This document shows positions 6,894-55,301 of a stretch of 64,000 nt of DNA, in pieces (position 1 is the stretch's first letter; every line of letters starts with the position of its first letter). The position numbers were made by a program, and so were the translations under genes. Source of the DNA: Negaprion brevirostris (taxonomy: Eukaryota). The DNA lies in the NCBI GenBank assembly GCA_030324005.1, contig JARDVH010000099.1, forward strand, positions 49,136,343-49,200,342, read 5' to 3'. Below the pieces are notes generated by a model. It saw nothing but the letters and a program-made list of their open reading frames with translations, was not told the DNA's origin and ran no database searches.

Positions 6894-9242
6894 TAATCAC
6901 TAGCAATGGGAAAATGCTGTTGTTGGCAACCATGAGATCTTGCAAAACATTGTTTTTTTTTGCCGCGTGTCTCACTGTTCAGAGAAACTGTTGAAAGGTG
7001 TGTGCATTGAGACACATATTCCTGTGGATGGCAGTAAAGTGCCCATAATTAGTGTGTGCGTGTGCTTGACATTTGTCAACGATAGAACAGCCTGATCTTT
7101 GTTTCCAGAATTCAGACAAGTAAAAGTGACTAGTGGAGCAAAGATAACTATATTGTTGATCATATTGTGCAGTGCACATGCCAGCGAATCTAATCTGTTC
7201 TTCAGATCCCACTCTAAAAGCTTACCTCTTGCTTGAGTGGTGTGCCAACCTATAAAACTTGAAAACCAAAGCAGTCAGCTGAAGCGCTGTGCAACTGAGA
7301 GAAAATAGACGCGAATAAAGGCAATGACCAAGGCCCAGTGCTGCAAGGTAACTGAAGTTTTAATGCATTGAAATTCAGAATTCTTATTGCATGTTTTGGT
7401 GTCACATTCTGCAACTTGTTCATTTTCCTGGTAAAACAGGAGCTTCATGTGTTCATCTGTGAAAATGGTTTGCTACAATGGGAATAAACTGGGCCATGAT
7501 CTTGTAACTTTAAGCTGAAGTGATGCCCTTGTATTACATGTATTACATGTATCACATGTATAAGATGTATAAGATGGAAATGAACATCAAAGTACATATA
7601 GGTGGAATTTGTGCAGTAGTGGATCTAATNNNNNNNNNNNNNNNNNNNNTTCCAGGTGGGTATTAGGAGATGTATAATCTTAAGAGAAGCTTGGATTATT
7701 GACAGTTTTGTTGTTTTCTTTACTCCCAGTGCTTTGAAGTGTAGTGGGACTCCAAAATTGGGTTTCTAATTATGGCAGTGGTGGTAACAGTCAATTCCCG
7801 TGGTCAAAACCTAGTTCCATTTAAAATCCACTTAAATGTATAAGATTTATAAATATTTTAAGCTTTTTTTGATTATAAATAGGTTGCCTAACGGCTCTGT
7901 CCCATCAGATGATCGTACTGAATGTCTTGTTGCCAAGCCACCCACTCTCACAGCCAAGCTCCTGTCTTCATGTGGCACTGTACAATAATCTCCCCCCATA
8001 TGGAGCAATTGGTGATTGTTTCTCATTGTTTGCTGCTGTGGTTATCTGGTATCACCAAAGCATCACATACAATTGCCTTGGAAACTCATTACAGCAAGTA
8101 AATTTAATTGAGCCATGATTCCCTGATTGAGTGTGCAATTCAAAGTATTTGGTAATAGTCAAAAAATAAATTACATGCCCTCATTCTGCCTTCAGATTCT
8201 CCATTCACTAGGAATCTAGGCAGCAGAAGAGAACCGGTGGATATTATCGTTGCCATGCATTGCATTTAACCAGATGTTTTACTTTATCAGTTTTACTTTA
8301 TCCTCCCATGTGCTCACCCTGTTCAAATTAGAATGCAACAGACTCCAAGATTGTTGTTTTTTTTTGAGCTACTTCTGCTTAATTTCCCCTATTTCTCTGC
8401 ACTCAAAAACTGTCAGCTCAGAGTAAGGCCAGGTTTCCCGAATATCTATTTATTGATTTTCCCTGCCTCCCTCGAATCCAATACGTCACTAACAATCAAC
8501 AGTCTGACTTCAAAACAGAAGGTGGAGTGTTGAATTCCCAAAGCTGCCTGCCGTACCAGTTCAGTTGTCGTTCATCATCCACCCATTGAATGGCTAGATG
8601 AAATAGCGCATTCAAGTCATGGCTTCATCTGACAAGGAAACAATGCTTTCCTTTTAAGATCCTGGGGGTAGTTTTTGTTCAGGGTCTTATGTCACATGGA
8701 AACATACACCACAGAAGGAGACCATTTGGTCTGTCAAGCTTGTGCCAGCTCTTTGAAAGAGCTTTCCAATGTAGTCCCACATTGCAGTTTTTTCCATGTA
8801 CCCATAAAAATGAATCTTCAAGTAGATGTCCAATGCTTGAATAATTGCTATGTTTTAAAAGCACTTCCAATTCATAGGTAACACAAGGCAATCTATGTAA
8901 TGTAAAGTTTCATGGTTTTTTGGCCAAACCTTTTTTGCAAAACAGTTTGTAATCAACAAATTTATGCCAGGTGCTCTGTATTATACATAATAACATGCTG
9001 ATTAATAGACTATAACTTTAAAAAAGGAAGGCAACATAAGAATTGTTCTGAATATATTCTCCAACTACAAGAGATTGCACTGGAGATATTCTTTATTAAA
9101 ATAGTTACCCACTTGTGTCTCTATCTCTGCCTCTTTCTCAATATCTACGAATATGTATTAGGTCTAATTGATATCCACAAACATATTTTTACATAGCCAT
9201 TTGGTAGTATAGAACTTAAGTATTGCTGAAACAAGAAGACAC

Positions 9243-9279
9243 ACTATCAAAGTTTTTCACCTTGCACTCACCAGAAATT
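9243..9279 (-). ncRNA. Degenerate minimal hammerhead ribozyme motif (copy A)
   Basis: Minus strand reads CUGGUGA-GUGCAAGGU-GAAA-AACU-UU-GAUAG. Core change A6 to G. Confidence 0.5.
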
Positions 9280-9656
9280 TCCAGCAGTAATGGAGGAACA
9301 ATTTATGCCGCATGAGGAGAGAGTGCTGATTGGCTGGTGGAGGCATTGCCATGGAGAATACATAACGGAACAGTAAACTGCCCAGCTTTATCTCAACAAT
9401 TGGCAGATCGTATCAAACAACATCCCTTTGGGCAGCAGGCAAAGTACTGACCATATCTAACTAGCCCCCGCTTGCGCACTCAAAATGTATTGTCCAGTAT
9501 TAGATGTGATTCCATGATTGGACAACACTTATTAAACAATTCTGATTACACTGAAAATTTATTTAAGATTGTCATTGGTTTCGCAGTGAGGCTCACTTAT
9601 GTATGCTAGAATCTACTTCTATTCATGCATACAGCCCTGTCTTTTGCAAGCAGAAG

Positions 9657-9968
9657 GAACATAGAATCTCTACAGCGCAGAAGAAAGCCATTTGGTCCAT
9701 CAAGTCTGCATCCACTCTTTAACAGCACATCTTACCCAGGCCCTATCTCCGTAACCCCATGCATTTACCCTGCTAATCCCCTAACTTATACATTTTTGAC
9801 ACTAAGCGGCAGTATAACACGGCCAATCTACCTAACCTTTCCACCTTTGGACTGTGGGAGGGAATTGGAGCACCTGGTGCAGACTCCACACAGGCAGTTG
9901 CCCAAGGCTGGAATCAAACCTGGGTCTCTGGTGCTGTGAGGCAGCGGTGCTAACCACTGTGCTGCCAC
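9657..9968 (-). mobile_element. HE1-type V-SINE inserted in the Penelope-like ORF
   Basis: Reverse complement of the 6574-6893 family (ggtgctgtgaggcagcggtgctaaccactgtgctgcc). Possible short acat target duplication. Confidence 0.88.
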
Positions 9969-10220
9969 ATGTATGCCTCTTTCAACTAAACAAAAGCTTA
10001 AGGAACTGTCATTCTCTGGTTTGTTTCTCATGGCAACACCATGACCAATCAAAGTGGACCCTGGCCAGTTTGAATTTGAACAAAACTGGGCAGTTAATTA
10101 TTTCATGCTGCATTCTCCATGGCACCTCTTCCAATCAGAGTCCATTTGTCAAACAATCTGCACTATCTTCTCAGGCAATATCAGTTGTCGTTCTGCTATT
10201 GCTGTTGATAATTTCCTGCT

Positions 10221-10260
10221 GGCCATCCTGATGAGTGCAAGATGAAAAGCTTTGATACCC
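10221..10260 (+). ncRNA. Minimal type-I hammerhead ribozyme motif (copy B, best preserved)
   Basis: auc-CUGAUGA(10228-10234)-GU GCAAG AU-GAAA(10244-10247)-AGCU-UU-gau. All core nucleotides are present, stem III is the palindrome AAGCUU, and stem I is auc/gau. Confidence 0.7.
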
Positions 10261-13200
10261 TGTCTCTTTTTTCAGCTATATATATAAATTGGTAGTTTGG
10301 AGCATATTTATTCAATAATTACTATTTTTCAATAATACAGCTTCTGCTTGCATCTATTTTGACGCCTGCTCTAATCTCCAATGTAAGAGGATATGGAAGA
10401 TGAATGAAATTGCCCCCAACACCCCTTGCATCATATATTTCCAATTGAGATAGATAGCCCAAAGACTTGGGCAGTTTGTAGTCCTGAAGATGATTGGGCA
10501 TTTAAAGGGGCAAACAGTTCACATTAGCATCACTTTGTGGATGGTTGGCAACAGGGCATGCAATTAACAACAAGCTCACTGTTTTAAGATGTTATATCAT
10601 GTATATAATGCAGTGAACATGGACAAAATTCTCATGCAGCATAATGAAAGCTTATGTCATTCGTATGGTTCCTATGATTCAATCAAGGAATCTTGCCTAC
10701 GAGCACAGTAACTTTATTGTCCACCAGTATCCAATGACAAGAAACAAAACAGGTGTAAAATGGATTAAAACTCTTAAATTTCACCTCCTGTGCAGGTATT
10801 TTATACAAAATAGCTGTAACGTTTCTAAAAATTTAACACATTGAAAACAGCAGAGAACATTGATAGAGCGCTAAAATAAGCTTTCATGTTTATAGACATC
10901 ATTTCAGATCTTGTAAAATACTCAAATCCAGGGCTCCCCTCAGCCCATCCCCCAATTCTTCTGGACTGTCATAATTCTTGGCGAAACATTGGATTTTCCC
11001 AAAGCAAAGCCAAACCACTTCTTCTTCCCACTTAATGACTACCTCTAGAGGGATATCTTTAGTACCATTTTGATGTGTGTTTTCTGCTTTGATAACATAA
11101 TATCAGCTCATTTACATGTTTCACAAATAAACCAATGGATGGAGTTGTGGACTTTAATCCTCTTGCTGTTTACTGAAAGTGGAATTTGACTTTTTTAATC
11201 ACTGTGAATTAGTAGTCTGAAGTTTCCCTTCCATAATGTTAACATCCTTAAGTATACACTATCTCACTATGAACAGCATCTTGAAAGATTTATTAGTACC
11301 CTTAATATGTATATTTAATCTCATTTTTAAGGTTCACTGATGAGATCACACTCCACATTCATACAGTTATACAGTTTGCATCAGAATTTCTCATTCAGGT
11401 TAGTAGCAGATAAACATTCCTATCTAAATTGGTTCTGAGTGTTGATTGACAAGCAAATCAAAGAATGTAGGGAGTAGGCAGGATAGATTAGTCAGTATCT
11501 TCTTTCATGGTGCAGCCCTGATCCTAAATTAATAGTTTCTAATGTATGTGGGTTAAAATAATTAAGTACATGCACAGCTTAGTTTATTCTGAGTCTTGCA
11601 GTCAAAACTATAAATTTTGCAGATTACTCACAAGTGTGTGTTGTGCCCAAGTCCAGTCAGTGGAGATAAAGTTTATGGATGCAAATCACTCAATTTCTCA
11701 GGTACTGTGCATGTAGGGCACTACTAACGACCCAAGGAGTTGTGTGTGATGCCACCATCATTATGACATCGCCAGAAGTATTGACTGGTGAATTTCAGCA
11801 CTCAAAGGATGTGTGGATAGGAGCAGAGTCATAGCAATGACACGGAGGGGTGAAAATACGCAGAGTGAAATGTATGCATTATACTTGAGTTTATTAATAG
11901 TGGCCAGACTATAAATGGGCTCAGTAACATCATGGGGGTGAGGGGGTGGTTTTTAATGAAACTCACAAGCATGGGAAATGTGGCCTGCTTAATTGGATGG
12001 GATGCGAAATATCCTGATGACAGGTTGAGATGCAGAGATAGAGCATTTGCATGCCATGTATGCTCACTAACATGAAATGGTGTTCACTAAGGTCCTACAC
12101 TTTGTTGTAGGTGCACAAGAATCTTGTGGCACCCGGTTCAGATTGTTTAAAGGTGCCAGTTGTGCAGTTGTGTCCACAGTAAGTGTCCATTTTCATGCAC
12201 AAGGCAGTAGGTGTTGAGAGGTTGGTGTTGGGTGCAGGGAGAAGCAGGAGAGGCAAGGGCCTAGTGCCTGTGTATGCTGGTCCTTTAAGGGGTTGGTGAG
12301 AAGGTCAAGGTAGGATTGAAAGATTGATGATGGATCTAAAGAGCTATCAATGCTGGGATGCTAAGGATCGAATTAAGGATGCTGGGTGCTGAAGGGAGCA
12401 GTCATAATCAAAGAGGGAAAATGTTCATGGCCAGTTGTTGAGTGGGTCACTGGAATGATCAAAAACATGAGGAGGATAACAGGGGGATTCAGGATCAGAG
12501 TGAGCATTTGGAAGTCATGGGCACAATCCCAGTGGAGAGAGAGATAATATGTGAGGTAATTGGTAGTAGGGTCCAGGGGTGTCAGTAGGAGGTTCAAGAG
12601 TAACCAAGGAGAGAGGAAAACATACATTGGGTGGGTTAGGGGTGATGAGGGCAAACAGAGTGACAGGGAGAGCGGAAGGTACAGAATCGGGTTTTAAAAG
12701 TCATGCACTATAATTTTAATGTCTTTTTCTGAATGCAAGTTCAATTGGAAGTAGGAGGAGGGTTGGTTTGGGTGGGAGGGAATTAATGTTGTGCATAACT
12801 GACCGACTAAAGGGATTCTCTTTAGGAATGAGAACAACGTACAAGCGTGTTCTCCCATGTATTATTGCCATCTTTACACGGTGCAATTNNNNNNNNNNNN
12901 NNNNNNNNNNNNNNNNNNNNNNNNNNNNNNNNNNNNNNNNNNNNNNNNNCGTCGAACAACTGAGGCCAACGGTAGGCTGCACCAGAGGGGTTTGCAGGTT
13001 CAGCCGGACTCCAGCACCGAGGGAAGGCATCAACCAAGATGGACACTGGTGTACAAACACATCCAGAGGACAAAACCAAACTACCTCCAGATGTCAAAGC
13101 AGCAATGTCTGAAGATATCCCGGGAAATGACCATTGAGATATGTTGGATTGTTAATCAAGATGTGGAGAACTGTGAGGTTTTAGTGGGAACCCCATATCA

Positions 13201-19789: not shown

Positions 19790-20350
19790 CTGATGATAAC
19801 CAATTCTCCCTCACCATCGCCTTTCTCAACTCCTCCACTGTTGCTAAACTGTGAGATTACTGTCTAATATCCACTACTGAATGAGCAGAAATTTTCTAGA
19901 AATTAAATATTGGGAAGACTGAAACCATTATCTTNNNNNNNNNNNNNNNNNNNNNNNNNNNNNNNNNNNNNNNNNNNNNNNNNNNNNNNNNNNNNNNNNN
20001 NNNNNNNNCAGATTTTTCACATGCTTGCTGCCATATTTGTTAAGTAGGGAGAAATAGGTGATCTTAGTAATGGTGTGGACATGTGTTTGGAATCTTGGGG
20101 TCAAATATGGCAGCAAGCTTGTGAAAAATCTGCTTCAGCCTCTGACGGTTGATAGGGAGAGAGGTCGAGTCAATAGCTAGGGAATGCAGTTTGTCATGGG
20201 GATCAAAGATAATGGTTTCAGTCTTCCCAATATTTAATTTCTAGAAAATTTCTGCTCATTTAATTGTGGATATTAGACAGTAATCTCACAGTTTAGCAAC
20301 AGCGGAGGGGTTGGGAAAAGTGATGGCGAGGGAGAACCGGTTGTCGTCAG
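19790..20350. repeat. Long inverted repeat: arms 19790-20039 and 20102-20350, 62-nt spacer
   Basis: 19790-19934 is the reverse complement of 20206-20350. 20009-20039 is the reverse complement of 20102-20132 (1 mismatch). The 74-N gap mirrors the 73 nt at 20133-20205. Confidence 0.92.
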
Positions 20351-23005: not shown

Positions 23006-23767
23006 ATCTATAATGGAAACTACCTTTTCAAACTTGGCACACTGTAATTGCACTCTGTTGACAGTAAAGAATCTAATGACAAACAGTGCAAGTTTACATA
23101 AATGTGCACTGATGAAAGATCTCTCTCTCTCTGACGCTCACATGTGCTTGCCTTTACTGTAGATTTACTGTCATCAGACAATAATTTACAGTCACCAGGA
23201 CAGTTCTTTTGTGCTACCTACTGTAAACTGATCTGTGCATAAATTTGCAGTCATTTAATGTGTACCCTATCACGCAGAATATATTGACTTTGTTTCAAAA
23301 ACTGCTCGGCAGAGGTATTAGGCAGGAAAGAATGAATTGTGTCTATTGCCTTTTAGTAACTGCACATGAGAGAATGGTTTGAAATATTGAGTCGCAGGAG
23401 AAACAGTTGACATCTATACCAGTTGAGAACATAATTGAAAAGAGGCAGTGTAGCATAAAGAAAGTTCTACTCCAATGATTGACAGATGAAATCTTTGTAT
23501 TTTGCATTAATAAACCTAAATACTGTAGCCAATATGTGGTGATGTGGCCAAAAAGTATATTGTTTTCACAGATGGTAATTACTTGTGCCATTTGTGACAT
23601 TAGCTTCAATTTGAAAACTGACTACCATATAATCCAGTGTATAAGCCACTCCAGTAATTTGCAATTGCTGTATTAATTTTAAAAATCTCCCAGTCGTAGT
23701 GGTGGACAAGTTGCAACTCTCACTGTGTATTTAAGTGTCTTTAACCCGTCGTCTTTTACGTTTCTAG

Positions 23768-23892
23768 GTGAACCAAGCCCAAGTCGCCGCGAAGCGGTGA
23801 AGAGGAAGACTGCGGAGTACCTGATGCGTGCAGAGCAGATCTCCACTCAGTATCTCAGGACGTCCGTGGAAAATAGTTCAGTTCATTCAACG
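23768..23892 (+). CDS. RPS6KC1: RPS6KC1 coding exon (~exon 7), C-terminal part of MIT domain
   Basis: Acceptor tttctag|G and donor ACG|gtatgt. Encodes (G)EPSPSRREAVKRKTAEYLMRAEQISTQYLRTSVENSSVHST, matching the RPS6KC1/SNX15 MIT motif RREAVKRxTAEYLMRAE. Phase 1 to 0. Confidence 0.95.
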
Positions 23893-25559
23893 GTATGTAT
23901 GTCCGCTCTTTCATTGTGTTTGGGAACAGAGTCAACATACACGGGGGGGGGGGGTTNNNNNNNNNNNNNNNNNNNNNNNNNNNNNNNNNNNNNNNNNNNN
24001 NNNNNNNNNNNNNNNNNNNNNNNNNNNNNNNNNNNNNNNNNNNNNNNNNNNNNNNNNNNNNNNNNNNNNNNNNNNNNNNNNNNNAAGAAGGTCCCACCAT
24101 TGGCCAATAGCTCCCATCGTGGGTAAGCCAGAGAATCCAATCCACAGACTTTAAAAATTCATCTTATGTATGAAAATCTATTGCCACTTCTGGCCAAGGT
24201 AATTTTCTTTCTGCAGGAACGCGCCCAGTGATTTTTTTTATGTCTGCCTTAACAAGTACAGTTTGTGTCGATAAAACAAAGCTTTTAAGATGTAAATTGT
24301 TAACTATTGAAACAGACGCCTGCTAAGTGATAGCTATTTTTCAAACTTTAATGTCTCCATGTTTTCAGTTCTTTTTGCCGAACCTTTCTCAGGTTATCAG
24401 CCTGCTCCGTCCCATATTTATTGGCNNNNNNNNNNATTGGCCGAGTGGCAGGCGGGCGACCTGTTTCTCGGCCTTTGCCAACAGTGTTCTGGAGCTTGCT
24501 GTTGGGAAGGTGCCTGGGTAATTTGCCCACTGAGGATAAGCGCCAAACAGCCATTTGCAGAATTTGCCATTTTATAATTAGTGATACTGTGTTGCCAGTT
24601 TCCCATTATTGTTTAGCATTTTAAAAACCATTAAAAATATAATCCTAGAGTGGAATGTAGTGAAAGTCACAATAGACCAAACTGAACTGCAAGATAAAAG
24701 GGAATATTTTGTACAGTAAGCAGGAAATGTCTTTGTGTTTAGCGTTGTCATTATAATATGTGGATGCATTATATGATGTCCTATATTTTAAGTCTTGTCT
24801 TCAAGTGAGTGCTTCAGGTCTAAGCTTTGTGTTTTAGAAATACCTTGTGAGAGCAGATTCTGAAATTTAATTTTGGTCTTCTTTGAGAGGATATTTATCA
24901 GGAAATATTTACAAGACCGAACAGTGTGCTCCTTATGGAATACACCTGATCCTCCAGCTTCATGTTAAAGGATAAACTGAGTTTCATTCCCAATTTTATC
25001 AGGAGATGGCGTCAAGGATCATTTCATACAAGAAAACACATTTTCCCCACTTACTGCTCACAACTGAGGGATTTTGATGCAATACAATATCTCGGGAAAA
25101 CCTCCTTTCATGATAAACATTGTACAATATTCTGAGAATTCAAATTGATAGCAATACATTTCTGCTGGGTTTTTAAAATATAATTTTATGAAGATTGCAG
25201 AGTGTNNNNNNNNNNTCAGCTCCCCATTAGGCCCCATCCCTTTAGGCTCCTGCCCATTGGGCAAGTGCCAGGGTGGCAGTGCCAAGGTACCAGACCTCCT
25301 TGTGGGACCTCAATGGCCTCCAGTTCCACTGGTGAGGTCAACAGGACTGTTACCCATTCGTGGGAAGCAGGTGTTTTCCTGCCGGAGAGAACCTCTCCCA
25401 GTGAGCCCGCACAATTGACCCGCCAAGCTCAATAACCACATGCAACTTCAAATTCAAATATATTTAAATAAATTATTCAGCCTCTAGCCTACTTTTGGCG
25501 AGACCCAGACCTTGCTGAAAGTTCTCATAAAATTGTGAGAGCCGAGAAATTAGGTGGGG

Positions 25560-29639: not shown

Positions 29640-29750
29640 TTAATTTAAAAAATTTTGTTGAAAAGAGACATGTTATTGAAGCTTTTCATCTTGCACCCAT
29701 CAGGACAAGTGCAAGAATACCAGATTTCAAACAATCTCAATAATTTATAG
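29640..29750 (-). mobile_element. Penelope-like terminal repeat with hammerhead motif (copy C, 29673-29708)
   Basis: Minus strand reads uuguc-CUGAUGG-GUGCAAGAU-GAAA-AGCU-UC-aauaacauguc. Core change A9 to G, UUC cleavage triplet kept. Confidence 0.7.
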
Positions 29751-29900
29751 TACAGAACACCTCACTTAAAGTTGTGCTTGTGTTCTTGAAATTAGTGACG
29801 TTAAGTGAACCAATTTTAATTGAATCATGTATTCCCATACGGATCAGTGTTAAAGCTGGAATTGGGTTCCTTCGAACATTTCTCACTCAGCGAAACCAAT
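29750..29900. mobile_element. Possible Tigger/pogo-like DNA transposon end
   Basis: tacagaacacctcacttaa..ttcccata..gtgttaaa resembles Tigger termini. The partner end was not identified. Confidence 0.35.
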
Positions 29901-30014
29901 GTGTAAGTTGAGATACTGTACCTACATGTGCAGCATCGTATTCCTCACTGAAATGTCTCGCAAAATAAAAGAACTATTGTATAAATACAAACTGGGTAAC
30001 ATTTGCAAATCTCC

Positions 30015-30300
30015 TTGTCGTCTTAAGATTTGAGGGTGACTTGCTTCCAGTTTTGTACGATGGGTTCTGGGGTGCCTGATAATCTAGCATGCAATCTCCA
30101 GACTCTGCCACACGTGGGTAGGTGTTGCTTTTGCACTCTCTCCGCCACCGTGACTTAACCTCTGTGTATTGCTATTGAAGTCTCTCTATGTTTGGTGTCT
30201 TCCCAAATGAACCTCTTCCCATTTTAGTTGGTCTCCTTGAGTTGTTGGAGTCCTTTGACCTCATCAGGGAAGCTTTGAGGACATCCCTAAAGTGTTTCAG
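30015..30300 (-). mobile_element. RTE (BovB-like) LINE 3' end
   Basis: Minus strand encodes KHFRDVLKASL (cf. RTE C-terminal KRfKDxLKxSL). Confidence 0.65.
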
Positions 30301-31039
30301 TGAGATGGCTTTGAATGATTTAGAGCCTCAGTGCTGATCCTTGCTTGCTGAAAATGGCTCTCTCATTGGTTTTGAGGTGAGGCTTCTGCCTCACTTGCTG
30401 CATACTTGAACAAGGGCCAGACTTCAGAGCTTCAAAATTATGCACATGATTGTAGAGTTGGCTTCCTTAAGGATATATCCTGTATCTTTCATCCAAATAA
30501 GCCCTTAGATAATGAAAGCAATTACTGTATCTGTGTACGGTAACAAATACCTTTCTTGCATAGATTTCAATGTGCCTCCCGCAAAGCAGGCATTCCTGAA
30601 GTTTCCAAATTAAAGTCAGCCTGCAGAGGTAAGAAATGAGCCTCCTTTTCTACAAGAGATGAAAAGCCCAGGCTTGAACATTTTGCTTTTCAAAAATAAA
30701 AACTTGGATATTCTTCATTTAGGACTTTGCCCCTGAGTTTAAAACAAAAGTTCTGTTGAGTGCAAACGCTTTTTTTCACAATGGCGCCAATCAGACCAGG
30801 GAACCTGACTTCAGATGACCATTAAACTGACTGACATGAGATTACGTGCAGTGTATGCGAAGAGGACACCAATGAGTGCAATGAGGACGTTGACGCATGA
30901 TAATACCCAATGTGCGCAATGATGATGATAGAACATGCAGTGATATAAACAGCCTTGAGGAAGAAGCAACTTTAAATAGCGTTAAGCAGGGCAACAAAGC
31001 AAAGACCTGTTGTGCAGGAGAAAATGAGGAATTGGGCAT

Positions 31040-31130
31040 TTTTGCACTTGTCCTGATGAGTGCACAATGAAAAACTTTGGTGATATGTATTTTTTTTCAG
31101 TATTATTAAGTTCTACACTGCCGAACAACA
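31040..31130 (+). mobile_element. Penelope-like terminal repeat with hammerhead motif (copy D, 31048-31083)
   Basis: uuguc-CUGAUGA(31053-31059)-GUGCACAAU-GAAA-AACU-UU-ggug, then a tail ttcag..aagttcta shared with the reverse complement of 9190-9230. Confidence 0.7.
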
Positions 31131-51715: not shown

Positions 51716-53272
51716 TAATAATAATCACATTGTTAAATAATTAAACTCTTAGTTTTCAGACTTGACTATGCAATTTGCCACAGTTTGGAAATCCAGAAAA
51801 TTTGCGAAATAGGGAGATTAAGAGCTGGGCACTGTTTGTTGACAAACAGCGGAGTGATATGAATCAGCCAGCAAGTTCTGAAGATCTGTGCCTTGCACCG
51901 TTCTTCTGAATCCCCTAAACCCTGTAGCCGATTTGCACTTTAATAACGGTGTGTGCTAACAAACCGTCAGTTTTCCGGAAGGATCCAACCTATTGTCATT
52001 TGATACAGAACATCTTTAATAGTACCCAGTAAAAGCTCTTGCTCTAGTATATGCTGCTCTCCCAGGAGAATGTGGAGACAGGCTTTGAAGGAATAAATAG
52101 TATATAAAAAAAATCAAAACCAATGTCTCCTGTGATAAAAACTACCAAATATTATAAGCACTCTGCACATGAGGACCTGGACATTTGGAATGACATCTTT
52201 AGTTTTAGCAAACCCCTATTACAAAGGAACTGTTTGATATGCTGGAAGCCGTGATGTGCACTTGGGTTTAAAGTAGTAATTAAATCATTACAATTCAAGC
52301 ACTTAGAGGAGTATTAAGTAAAGGCTGCCAGTTTGTACCTGCATTCCAATCTGGCACAGTAAACACAATCAATTGAACATGATAATAGCCCTACATGTTC
52401 ATGTGGGCTGCCATTATTTGTGCAGATGCTCAGTATGGTTTTAGTACCTTAGTGAAGCAGATAATAATAGGCTTTACAGAACAAAATATTTTAGATACAT
52501 TAACAAAATTAAAGTAAGCACATTGCTTGCACTTATATTTCATATATAAATGATTTTGATTTGTGTAAAGGTGCATGCACCTGTGAATCTTTGAAACGTT
52601 TCTGAGAATCGGCTTTTTCAATAGATCGTAATGGATGTGAGGCCACAAAATATTTCCAAAAGGCTGACATTTTCAAGNNNNNNNNNNGAGGGGGTGGGTT
52701 GACAGGAGGTGAATTGCTCGTTCAGGAGGGGGCCAGCAGAGACGCAACAGGCTGAATGGCCCCCTGTGCTGTAACCATCCTAAGATCCTTCCTCATTATT
52801 ACAGGAGCATTTTAATGTTTTATATTGAAACATTCAGATTGATTCTTTCTGTAAAGATACAAGCTTATCCAATTGTAGATGTTAAATGTTTCTTGAGCCT
52901 GTTTACTCGTGAGGCTATCCATTTGTTGAGAAAGTTGACAGGACTGCAGTGAGATAAGAACTTATCTCCTGACCTCTTGTGAAGTTTCCTGTTACATTTG
53001 CAGCTGCAGGAATCCCCAGCTTGCTTTTCACAATGATGTGATTTGGCCCAGAGGATAAGGCATGAAATGGCTTTCCTTCCAGTGATGAAACATTACAATG
53101 TTATAACTCTGCGTTTCACCACATTATAGGTGAAGAACAAAATTAATATCTTGTTAATAACATGTAGGAAACTAAAGTAAGCATGTTACTCACCAAAAGC
53201 TAGTAAATCTGTAAAATAAGTTGTCTGAAGTTTTGCTTATTTTGCTAATTATTCTTTCTTTTATGAACCTAG

Positions 53273-55015
53273 GGGGTAAACTGTGGTCTTATGTAAGCAA
53301 ATTTCTCCAGAAAAAGTCCGAAGAAAGTTTTGAATCTCATGACTTGGACAAGCGTGGTCCCAAATCAGTCACTGTGTACGGTAGTTTTACCATGGACCAG
53401 TCAAGCACCGAAGGCATGAGCAGCAGTGTAGGCTCGGTGGGGAGTGACATTGGAAATATGCTTCAGGGCCTACCTTTGAAGAGTAACCCGACTTCGAGTT
53501 CACAGGATGATAGCAGTGCCCCAGATGAAGATACTCAGGACAATTCACAGGAATTATTAGATTCGCCATCATCAGGATCTGAAGCAGTTGAAGAAGAATG
53601 TACCAGTAGTTATCTTACACTGTGCCATGAGTACGAACAGGAGAAAAAAGAGCCTGATCATCTGACTTCAGAAACTTTTCCAACAGTTTGTGAAGATGTA
53701 CCTGGAAGTTCCGTCGACCTGGGAGTGACCTCTCGGTCACATTCCCTTCTTAGTAATGACAGTCTCTGTTCCCCTGCTACAAGTCAAGAACTTCGGTTCT
53801 TCACAGAGGACATTAACACCGAGGCTTTTAGCCCAACAAAAACGTCGGAGTCTCTAAATTTGTCCAAACATAGTCCAATGGAATTTTTCAGAATTGATAG
53901 CAAGGACAGTGCAAGTGAACTGGTAAGCCTCGACCCAGCAGAAAATGTACAAAATGCAAAAACAGAATCAGCACCAATCTTTAATCTGGTGTCTGAAGTG
54001 GACAATAACGAGAGCTGCTTTGACATGAGTGACATTAAGATGGAGTCAGTCGTCTTTCTGGCCCCCGATACTTGCAGCAGAAGGTCCGCAAATGATTCTG
54101 TACCAGTGATCTCCTTTCAGGATGCAGCAGGTGGAGATCCCAGCAGCTGTGAGGAGGGTAGGCCTGATCTATTAGTGAATTTGCCAGGTGTTTTAGAGGA
54201 TGATGAGGCAGCTGGACTACTTTTATCTGATAAATGCAGTGTGACTAACATTGATAATTCAGAGAATAGACAGTATGAGAAACCGGACGTTTTACTAATT
54301 AATTATAATGTTGATCATTGTGTGAATTCACAAGGAGCTCTGAAACTGATTCTGCCAAAGGAAGAGGACCCTTATGGTCCAGGTGTAGATAGTATCTCAA
54401 CACAGCAGTTACAACTTTCTCAGAATGGAAAGGAACAAGACCTGTACAAGCGAATTGATGCCAGTTTGCATGAAGCGAAAGAAAAAGAACTTAATTCCTT
54501 GTTTTCCATCACCCATGCTGCAAATATGCCATCATGTTTGACTGTTGAATCTGTTAGCACCTCAGACTTGGAACATATTCATAGAAATCTAAGTCCTGTT
54601 CCTCACTTGCATGAGCGAGTCAGCCCTTGTGGTACAGATTCAGGTGAAGATAGTTCAATTTATTCCCCAACTACAAAAGAAAAATATACAGATGGAAAAG
54701 ATATTTCGGACGAAGAGCAGACACACAGAGAAGACACAGATAGCTATGATCAAGACAGTATCCTGCACTCTGAAGACGTAAATGAAAAGGCAATGACAGA
54801 AAGCCACATTGTCACAAAAACAGATGCAGATAAGCTGATATCACACATGTTTAAAGAGCTGGAAGAAAGTTTTGCTCAAGCTTCTAATGCTCACATTCCA
54901 GAGAGCTCTATTCAATATTGGGCAGCAGAGATAGCTGTAGCCCTTGATGCACTTCATCGAGAAGGAATCATATGCCATGATTTGAACCCAAACAACATCT
55001 TGCTGAATGACAAAG
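53273..55015 (+). CDS. RPS6KC1: RPS6KC1 large coding exon (~exon 11): kinase hinge, long acidic insert, catalytic-loop region
   Basis: Acceptor gaacctag|G and donor AAAG|gtcagg. 1743 nt inside ORF 53221-55083: GKLWSYVSKFL...SPMEFFRIDSKDSASEL...GRPDLLVNLPG...IPESSIQYWAAEIAVALDALHREGIICHDLNPNNILLNDK(G). Phase 1-1. Confidence 0.97.
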
Positions 55016-55301
55016 GTCAGGAACTTTTGCAAATGCATTTTTTCCCTAATATCTTTTGCTGTTGCTTACTTGCTTCCAATTAAGTGAGTAGGCGTTTTAT
55101 CCTATAATTAGTATCTTCATTTCCTGTCTGAAGCCTCATTTCCAGTGCAGTGAATTCACCCACAGTAATAGCCTCTAGTGCTTAATGATGCCATTATTCT
55201 TAATGATACTGTTTTTTAGCTACAAAAGAATAATTACAGTTCACTTCTACAGAAAATGTAGGAAAAAATTGTTTTGATTTCTCATGTCATTTTGTTTTTA
55301 G

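Follow-up and report, generated by a model that had tools for sequence, protein, structure and literature searches.

The DNA analysed here is a stretch of 64,000 nt from Negaprion brevirostris (contig JARDVH010000099.1), referred to below as the window; one region within it, positions 9150-10330, was examined in detail. At 9200-10286 this region holds a repeat with inverted arms that encloses the remains of a coding sequence and probably derives from a Penelope-like element (PLE). The right arm (10076-10280, +) was delimited by BLASTN and alignment, resembles the pseudo-long terminal repeat (pLTR) of such elements, and carries CCAAT-like boxes at 10131 and, going by the family majority letters, at 10153. 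An earlier note on this DNA had claimed that an inverted copy of the terminal repeat lies upstream, and this was borne out: the left arm (9221-9396, -), likewise pLTR-like, matches 10076-10280 in inverted orientation with an E value of 1e-17 in BLASTN and 1.3e-16 in nhmmer. In a global alignment the arms are identical at 133 of 174 bases, and 25 of the 41 differences are transitions, so that the arms have diverged by 24%; relative to the right arm, the left arm has two deletions, of 15 and 13 nt. A tail-like extension (9200-9220, -) runs past the common end of the repeat on the left arm only, and the right junction is marked by a (TA)5 run (10277-10286, +), read from the sequence as a possible AT-rich target.

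The left arm adjoins, without a spacer, a decayed coding relic (9397-9662, +), in which we see the probable C-terminal half of a GIY-YIG endonuclease. The peptide pieces picked out in the earlier note are all present, LADRIKQH and IGQHLLNN in one frame with one stop between them and LES..I..PVFCKQKE in another. Within these translations R, two H and E of the catalytic set occur in a plausible order, and the GIY and YIG boxes are cut off. From this R, H, H, E order and the general C-terminal motif pattern of PLEs we take the relic to be the C-terminus of a PLE GIY-YIG endonuclease. It had been described as leading directly into the right-hand repeat, but this does not hold, as a 304-nt insertion resembling a short interspersed element (SINE; 9663-9966, -) and 105 more bases of the element (9971-10075, +) intervene. 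The SINE-like insertion, which we assume to be HE1-like, is the later arrival. It is high-copy, bears a 4-nt target duplication (ACAT, 9659-9662 and 9967-9970) and has further copies in the window. Contigs were taken from four public runs, each belonging to a different study (out of 24 runs), and aligned to 9150-10330 at 80% likeness; they have loose ends at its junctions (9660 and 9962-9966) in all four cases. Past the SINE, where family contigs cover 9975-10124, the element resumes in the reading frame that it had before, and this frame runs open for 86 codons (9971-10231) to a stop at 10229, inside the hammerhead core described below; 334 of 20,000 random 86-codon frames are open. The frame is thus still open although the copy is old.

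Near its outer end the right arm carries a minimal type I hammerhead motif (copy A; 10225-10256, +), recognised by its core, stems and palindrome. A 25-nt form of the motif, with up to three mismatches allowed, occurs four times in the window: A (10228-10252, +), B in the left arm (9250-9274, -), and a distant pair, C (29679-29703, -) and D (31053-31077, +). The number of copies agrees with that reported earlier and was reached in 0 of 100 shuffles (mean 0.00). An nhmmer profile built from the four copies recovered all of them, and nothing else in the window scored below E 0.05. Chance was considered as the source of the copies and was ruled out by the shuffles together with Markov controls. 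A weak, fifth core-like match (E 0.085) stands at 30747-30765, on the strand of D and some 300 nt upstream of it, and could be a decayed tandem unit.

To define the motif more strictly, we used a descriptor that requires the core, 3 bp in stem I, 2 bp in stem II and a helix III with a palindrome. Only copy A passes it, and among 60 Markov controls of 64 kb two gave any match, corresponding to 0.03 expected per 64 kb. Copy A consists of CUGAUGA (10228-10234), GAAA (10244-10247) and the palindrome AAGCUU (10247-10252); stem I pairs 10225-10227 with 10254-10256, stem II has two pairs (G-U and U-A) below a 5-nt loop, and the predicted cut falls after U10253. The core CUGANGA/GAAA/UH is intact and rightly spaced in A and D, and altered in B (A6G) and C (A9G). 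The claim of hammerheads at both termini is not supported. Copy B, a broken relic (9249-9274, -) in antisense, reads CUGGUGA, with AACU for AGCU and AAACUU for the palindrome, and has lost the 13 bases of the 5' strand of stem I; the statement that each repeat holds the full CUGANGA to AGCU series fails on these changes. Copy C (29655-29722, -) keeps the palindrome AAGCUU but, beside A9G, has its first stem I pair broken and a G to A change past the cut site. Copy D (31033-31125, +) has AAACUU in place of the palindrome. Helix I has 3 bp in copy A and 2 in copy B; in C it has 4, the first of which is broken, and in D 5, of which four are wobbles. Helix II amounts to 2 bp. The stem register pairs 77% of cells, compared with 32-45% when it is slid, a measure that is partly circular.

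An ancestral motif, uuguc CUGAUGA gu-gcaag-ac GAAA agcu UC gacaa, had been proposed from the four copies, with several differences put down to CpG sites. This was upheld in part. At position 17, C occurs in one of four copies, and the pattern of three TG and one CA suggests an old CpG. C at position 11.1, which would close stem II, and the C of 'gacaa' occur in none of the four. Position 11.1 precedes a G, and CpG decay there is plausible but unshown; at the C of 'gacaa' a wobble pair is the likelier state, because no copy has C and three copies have no following G. Two further resemblances were seen around the motif. Past the cut site, 10260-10275 and the matching parts of B and D form a pyrimidine run followed by CAG that resembles a splice acceptor, and the CUGAUGA box contains an ATG, near the site at which the open reading frame (ORF) of an anole element starts.

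Copies C and D make up a second inverted pair (29655-31125), separated by 1.3 kb and matching over 66 nt at 77%, and here too only one arm, that of D, has a tail. Their interior contains an apparent 3' relic of a long interspersed element on the minus strand. C and D match the right arm over only about 50 nt, compared with 175 nt for the left arm. The one-sided extension, about 20-30 nt long, is thus seen in both inverted pairs of the window. B and D share it beyond the point where A and C end (0 of 2,000 shuffles score as high), whereas for the other five pairings of the extensions 403-1,941 of 2,000 shuffles do. No clean target-site duplication brackets the whole unit at 9200-10286. A direct repeat of 18 in 24 bases links 10289-10312 with 9201-9224 (8 of 2,000 shuffles, for a pair picked after the fact); it could be a piece of inverted tail lying next to the right end, or an insertion into an older tail may have left a duplication that has since decayed.

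The contigs indicate how widely the element is spread. Depth, which is summed over contigs here and is not a copy number, was 2-29 in the flank bins, hundreds to thousands in the arms, up to 3,750 in parts of the coding relic and 1e4-4e6 in the SINE. The bin 9190-9229, which contains the tail, also has the depth of multi-copy sequence. The peak within the element is the bin of the hammerhead core, at 5,800-37,000, or about 1,000-4,000 times the flanks, in 4/4 runs. High depth together with many distinct contigs in 4/4 runs marks an interspersed multi-copy family, and shows that the element, and its core most of all, is highly repeated. Behind the core peak there may be numerous short copies, or several subfamilies that have the core in common. 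Among the positions listed, the family majority letters at 10149, 10153 and 10159 agree in 4/4 runs; they restore the second CCAAT box (10153), and both boxes may have a promoter role.

The same contigs date the insertion. In 4/4 runs, individual long contigs run across the left junction and on into unique flanking sequence, and they differ from the window at 0 of 379, 10 of 375, 19 of 557 and 20 of 557 positions (the last with 9 gaps in addition). The insertion is common to several related organisms. Given that the arms differ by 24% and the junction contigs by far less, the insertion would be older than the splits between these organisms, and we infer that it is much older. Contigs spanning 10070-10253 in two other runs show 9 differences in 184 bases and 6 in 182.

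Folding predictions bear on the state of the hammerhead. As monomers, the hammerhead helices have positive computed energy and a computed pairing probability of 0.000 in all four copies. The AAGCUU self-duplex comes to -4.3 kcal/mol for A with A, and the palindrome duplex of A with D to +0.5 kcal/mol. A and B cannot dimerise in one RNA, because a transcript that has A in sense has B in antisense; D, the only other sense copy, lies 21 kb from A and its palindrome is broken. When the whole element is folded, the prediction pairs one arm with the other across the core of A. Since copy A has no same-strand partner nearby, its helices are unstable alone and its core would be buried in the arm-arm duplex, the right-arm hammerhead is predicted to be inert at 9200-10286.

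These features can be set beside known systems. By the account in the Fig. 2 legend of Craig et al. 2021 (PMC8557442), PLE insertions are 5'-truncated, often have an adjacent inverted copy and a tail of 30-40 bp at one end, and carry a hammerhead in the pLTR; the same paper describes a (TA)n target preference in some PLE clades. The element shares with the layout drawn there for endonuclease-positive (EN+) PLEs the 5' truncation, the inverted copy, the extension at one end, a hammerhead in the repeat, a C-terminal endonuclease-like relic and an AT-rich junction. Cervera and De la Peña (2014; PMC4209133) describe minimal hammerheads in the fish PLEs Xena, Poseidon and Neptune, with thousands of solo copies per genome. 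In their text, the motifs occur as opposite-strand pairs 100-700 bp apart, monomers are uncleaved in vitro, dimer cleavage is low, and the pair G10.1-C11.1 is highly conserved. The present copies resemble these in being type I with no stable helix III, in the palindrome at 15.2-16.2, the short helix I, the conserved boxes, the abundance of solo copies and the closely spaced opposite-strand pairs. Stem II is 2 bp here against 7-8 bp in the Schistosoma family, and there is no extra base between 9 and 10.1; according to Perreault et al. 2011 (PMC3088659), natural hammerheads often have a stem II of two pairs, and pseudoknots are common in them.

A mechanism for the tail is offered by the Poseidon element PAc of Anolis carolinensis, in which Frangieh et al. 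2024 (PMC11167929) report one-end tails that arise from two internal start sites of reverse transcription past the hammerhead. The PAc ribozyme is described there as cutting only with protein, and cleavage as unneeded for insertion in vitro. The likeness lies in a hammerhead at the junction of pLTR and ORF start and in two start sites that would explain the tails; PAc is intact and assayed, whereas the copy here is dead. A preprint (bioRxiv 10.64898/2026.07.22.740005) reports type I hammerhead retrozymes, of the non-LTR kind and derived from PLE pLTRs, in one chondrichthyan, and Neptune and Poseidon PLEs in five vertebrate classes. Those retrozymes, as described, place type I hammerheads in PLE-derived repeats of a cartilaginous fish, as is likely the case here; they are head-to-tail tandems without coding sequence, however, whereas the unit here is inverted and encloses a coding relic, which separates it from retrozymes.

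Together these data support, with high though not full confidence, a reading of the locus as an old, decayed, multi-copy repeat with inverted arms that is likely a 5'-truncated, dead-on-arrival insertion of an EN+ PLE, with a minimal hammerhead in the right arm that is predicted to be inert. Of the traits of EN+ PLEs, those observed here are a pLTR-type repeat with an inverted, 5'-truncated neighbour, a tail at one end and a multi-copy family. By analogy with the published systems, the protein of the parent element would have nicked AT-rich DNA and reverse-transcribed its own RNA, beginning at an internal site shortly beyond the hammerhead. Synthesis would have halted within the endonuclease region, and a second, inverted and 5'-truncated copy would have been joined on from an alternative start; a start of this kind would give the inverted arm its extra tail. 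On the model of published relatives, the motif of the parent element would work only when two copies dimerise through the AAGCUU palindrome or when the element's own protein assists, and cleavage would follow position 17.

Several results weigh against this reading. The extension here, of about 20-30 nt, is shorter than the 30-40 bp tails of Craig et al. The Asn of the catalytic R, H, E, N set is not evident in the relic, and the reverse transcriptase part and linker are absent from the truncated copy. The relic protein had no match by word search, in Pfam or in PDB, nor by tblastn on metagenome and viral contigs. These blanks are weak evidence, because animal transposon proteins are scarce in the collections and the query sequences were short and had decayed. 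Among 1.84 billion proteins phmmer gave seven matches, which were multi-stretch matches to repeat proteins (four of the seven inspected individually); Pfam found neither reverse transcriptase nor GIY-YIG in any of the seven, and they were rejected. The pair 10.1-11.1 is G-U in 4/4 copies rather than the G-C described by Cervera and De la Peña, and covariation across the four copies does not rise above shuffles, 358 of 500 of which pair as well. At gathering level Rfam gave no match anywhere in the window, and of the three weak Rfam matches in 9100-10400 at E up to 10 none is a hammerhead. Scans of metagenome, viral and prokaryote contigs for the motif gave no match, which is unsurprising for a repeat of animal origin. 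Finally, both tail-bearing arms, B and D, carry AAACUU, and A and C do not; the arms could come from different subfamilies. The PLE identity put forward in the earlier note is left with a layout, tail and motif that fit the accounts in PMC8557442 and PMC4209133, and with a protein homology that no search has supported.

The shared AAACUU would also suit another origin, in which each arm inserted on its own, or a retrozyme-like, non-autonomous repeat came to lie beside an unrelated relic, and high copy number produced the inverted layout by accident. The core is much commoner than the remaining repeat, four copies fall within 64 kb, the whole unit has no clean target duplication, and B and D have in common both AAACUU and an extension that A and C lack. 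Accident, however, would have had to place the left arm against the relic without a spacer and with a match of 175 nt to the right arm, where C and D manage only about 50 nt, and to do much the same again in the second inverted pair, which has the same one-sided extension. This layout is moreover the published norm, and we regard an accidental origin as improbable. A different challenge concerns function: the right-arm hammerhead might be active or selected, and cut a host pre-mRNA in the manner of the domesticated intronic hammerheads of amniotes. That the core residues and palindrome of copy A are all intact while three of four copies are damaged would agree with this, as would its sense orientation to the two host exons described below and the existence, in two other runs, of contigs over 10070-10253 (9 and 6 differences). 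Those differences are no fewer over this span than in the neighbouring relic. Copy A, besides, has a G-U pair closing a 2-bp stem II, a 3-bp stem I, U at position 17, no helix III as a monomer and no intact partner on its strand; its core is predicted to be buried between the arms, the duplex available with D is far weaker than that of A with itself (+0.5 against -4.3 kcal/mol), and the minimal hammerhead monomers reported in PMC4209133 were uncleaved in vitro. Activity or selection at this locus is therefore very unlikely.

Still less credible is the view that the motif merely looks like a hammerhead and was never self-cleaving, being instead an ORF-start, splice-acceptor or protein-binding signal. 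The blanks in Rfam and covariation would fit such a signal, as would the pyrimidine run and CAG after the motif, a competing hairpin that is predicted to bury the core in C (P 0.999) and D (0.70), and the in vitro insertion of the anole element without need of cleavage (PMC11167929). What tells against it is the conjunction of boxes, spacing, stem I register and palindrome, expected by chance at 0.03 per 64 kb, and the fact that the anole motif, by the same report, does cleave with protein help. We return, then, to an ordinary, dead PLE insertion as the preferred account. Its kind is already in print, for fish in 2014 and for one cartilaginous fish in the 2026 preprint. The suggestion of an uncharacterised shark PLE ribozyme family may hold for the exact sequence, which had no match in the papers and supplements searched (Repbase, Dfam and the supplements of the 2026 preprint lay outside this search), and fails for the kind, since that is known, Chondrichthyes included. 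Sharks are not named in the text of PMC4209133 or in the two of its supplement files that were searched. As found, the locus matters little, being one dead copy among very many. The in vivo role of PLE hammerheads is open in print, and a decayed locus is no help in testing it.

Copies C and D have one further property in common. The bases 5' of their stem I (29704-29716, -, and 31040-31052, +) are reverse-complementary to stem II and its loop, with 8 perfect pairs in C and 6 in D. The resulting hairpin between flank and loop II is predicted to bury the core, at -14.4 kcal/mol and P 0.999 in C and with P 0.70 in D; 36 of 20,000 random 20-mers of the window give at least 8 paired bases. We count this complementarity as one observation, because a single event likely gave rise to C and D, copy A has a different sequence here and the segment is deleted in B. 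Among the positions listed, for which there are 5-17 contigs per run (11-17 at 10221), the family majority letter at 10221 matches C and D, both of which have A; this weakly backs a role for the flank as a switch. Tentatively, and with more doubt than belief, we suggest that the 8-base flank 5' of stem I would form a 12-bp hairpin that buries the core until protein or the 5' end of the transcript frees it, with a 5-bp pseudoknot between flank and loop II as a possible active form. No account of a flank complementary to loop II in PLEs was found in our literature search. If true, the switch would be a physical reason why the PLE hammerhead is protein-assisted, and if young copies keep the flank, it would give a simple and mutable means of asking why these ribozymes need help.

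Elsewhere in the window, nested inverted repeats surround an assembly gap at 19790-20350, with 145-nt arms that are 91% complementary and inner 31-nt arms that are 97% complementary; they may be MITE-like (miniature inverted-repeat transposable element) or an assembly artefact. Two exons of a host gene were also seen. A partial MIT match at 23683-23952 (+) begins only with position 40 of a 66-position profile, and 53215-55083 (+) holds a long, kinase-like exon, both below the Pfam curated cut-off; we take them to belong to an RPS6KC1-like gene. No earlier exon was seen by eye in 1-24 kb of the window. Since none was seen there and both exons are on the plus strand, the element is likely intronic, with copy A in sense to the gene.

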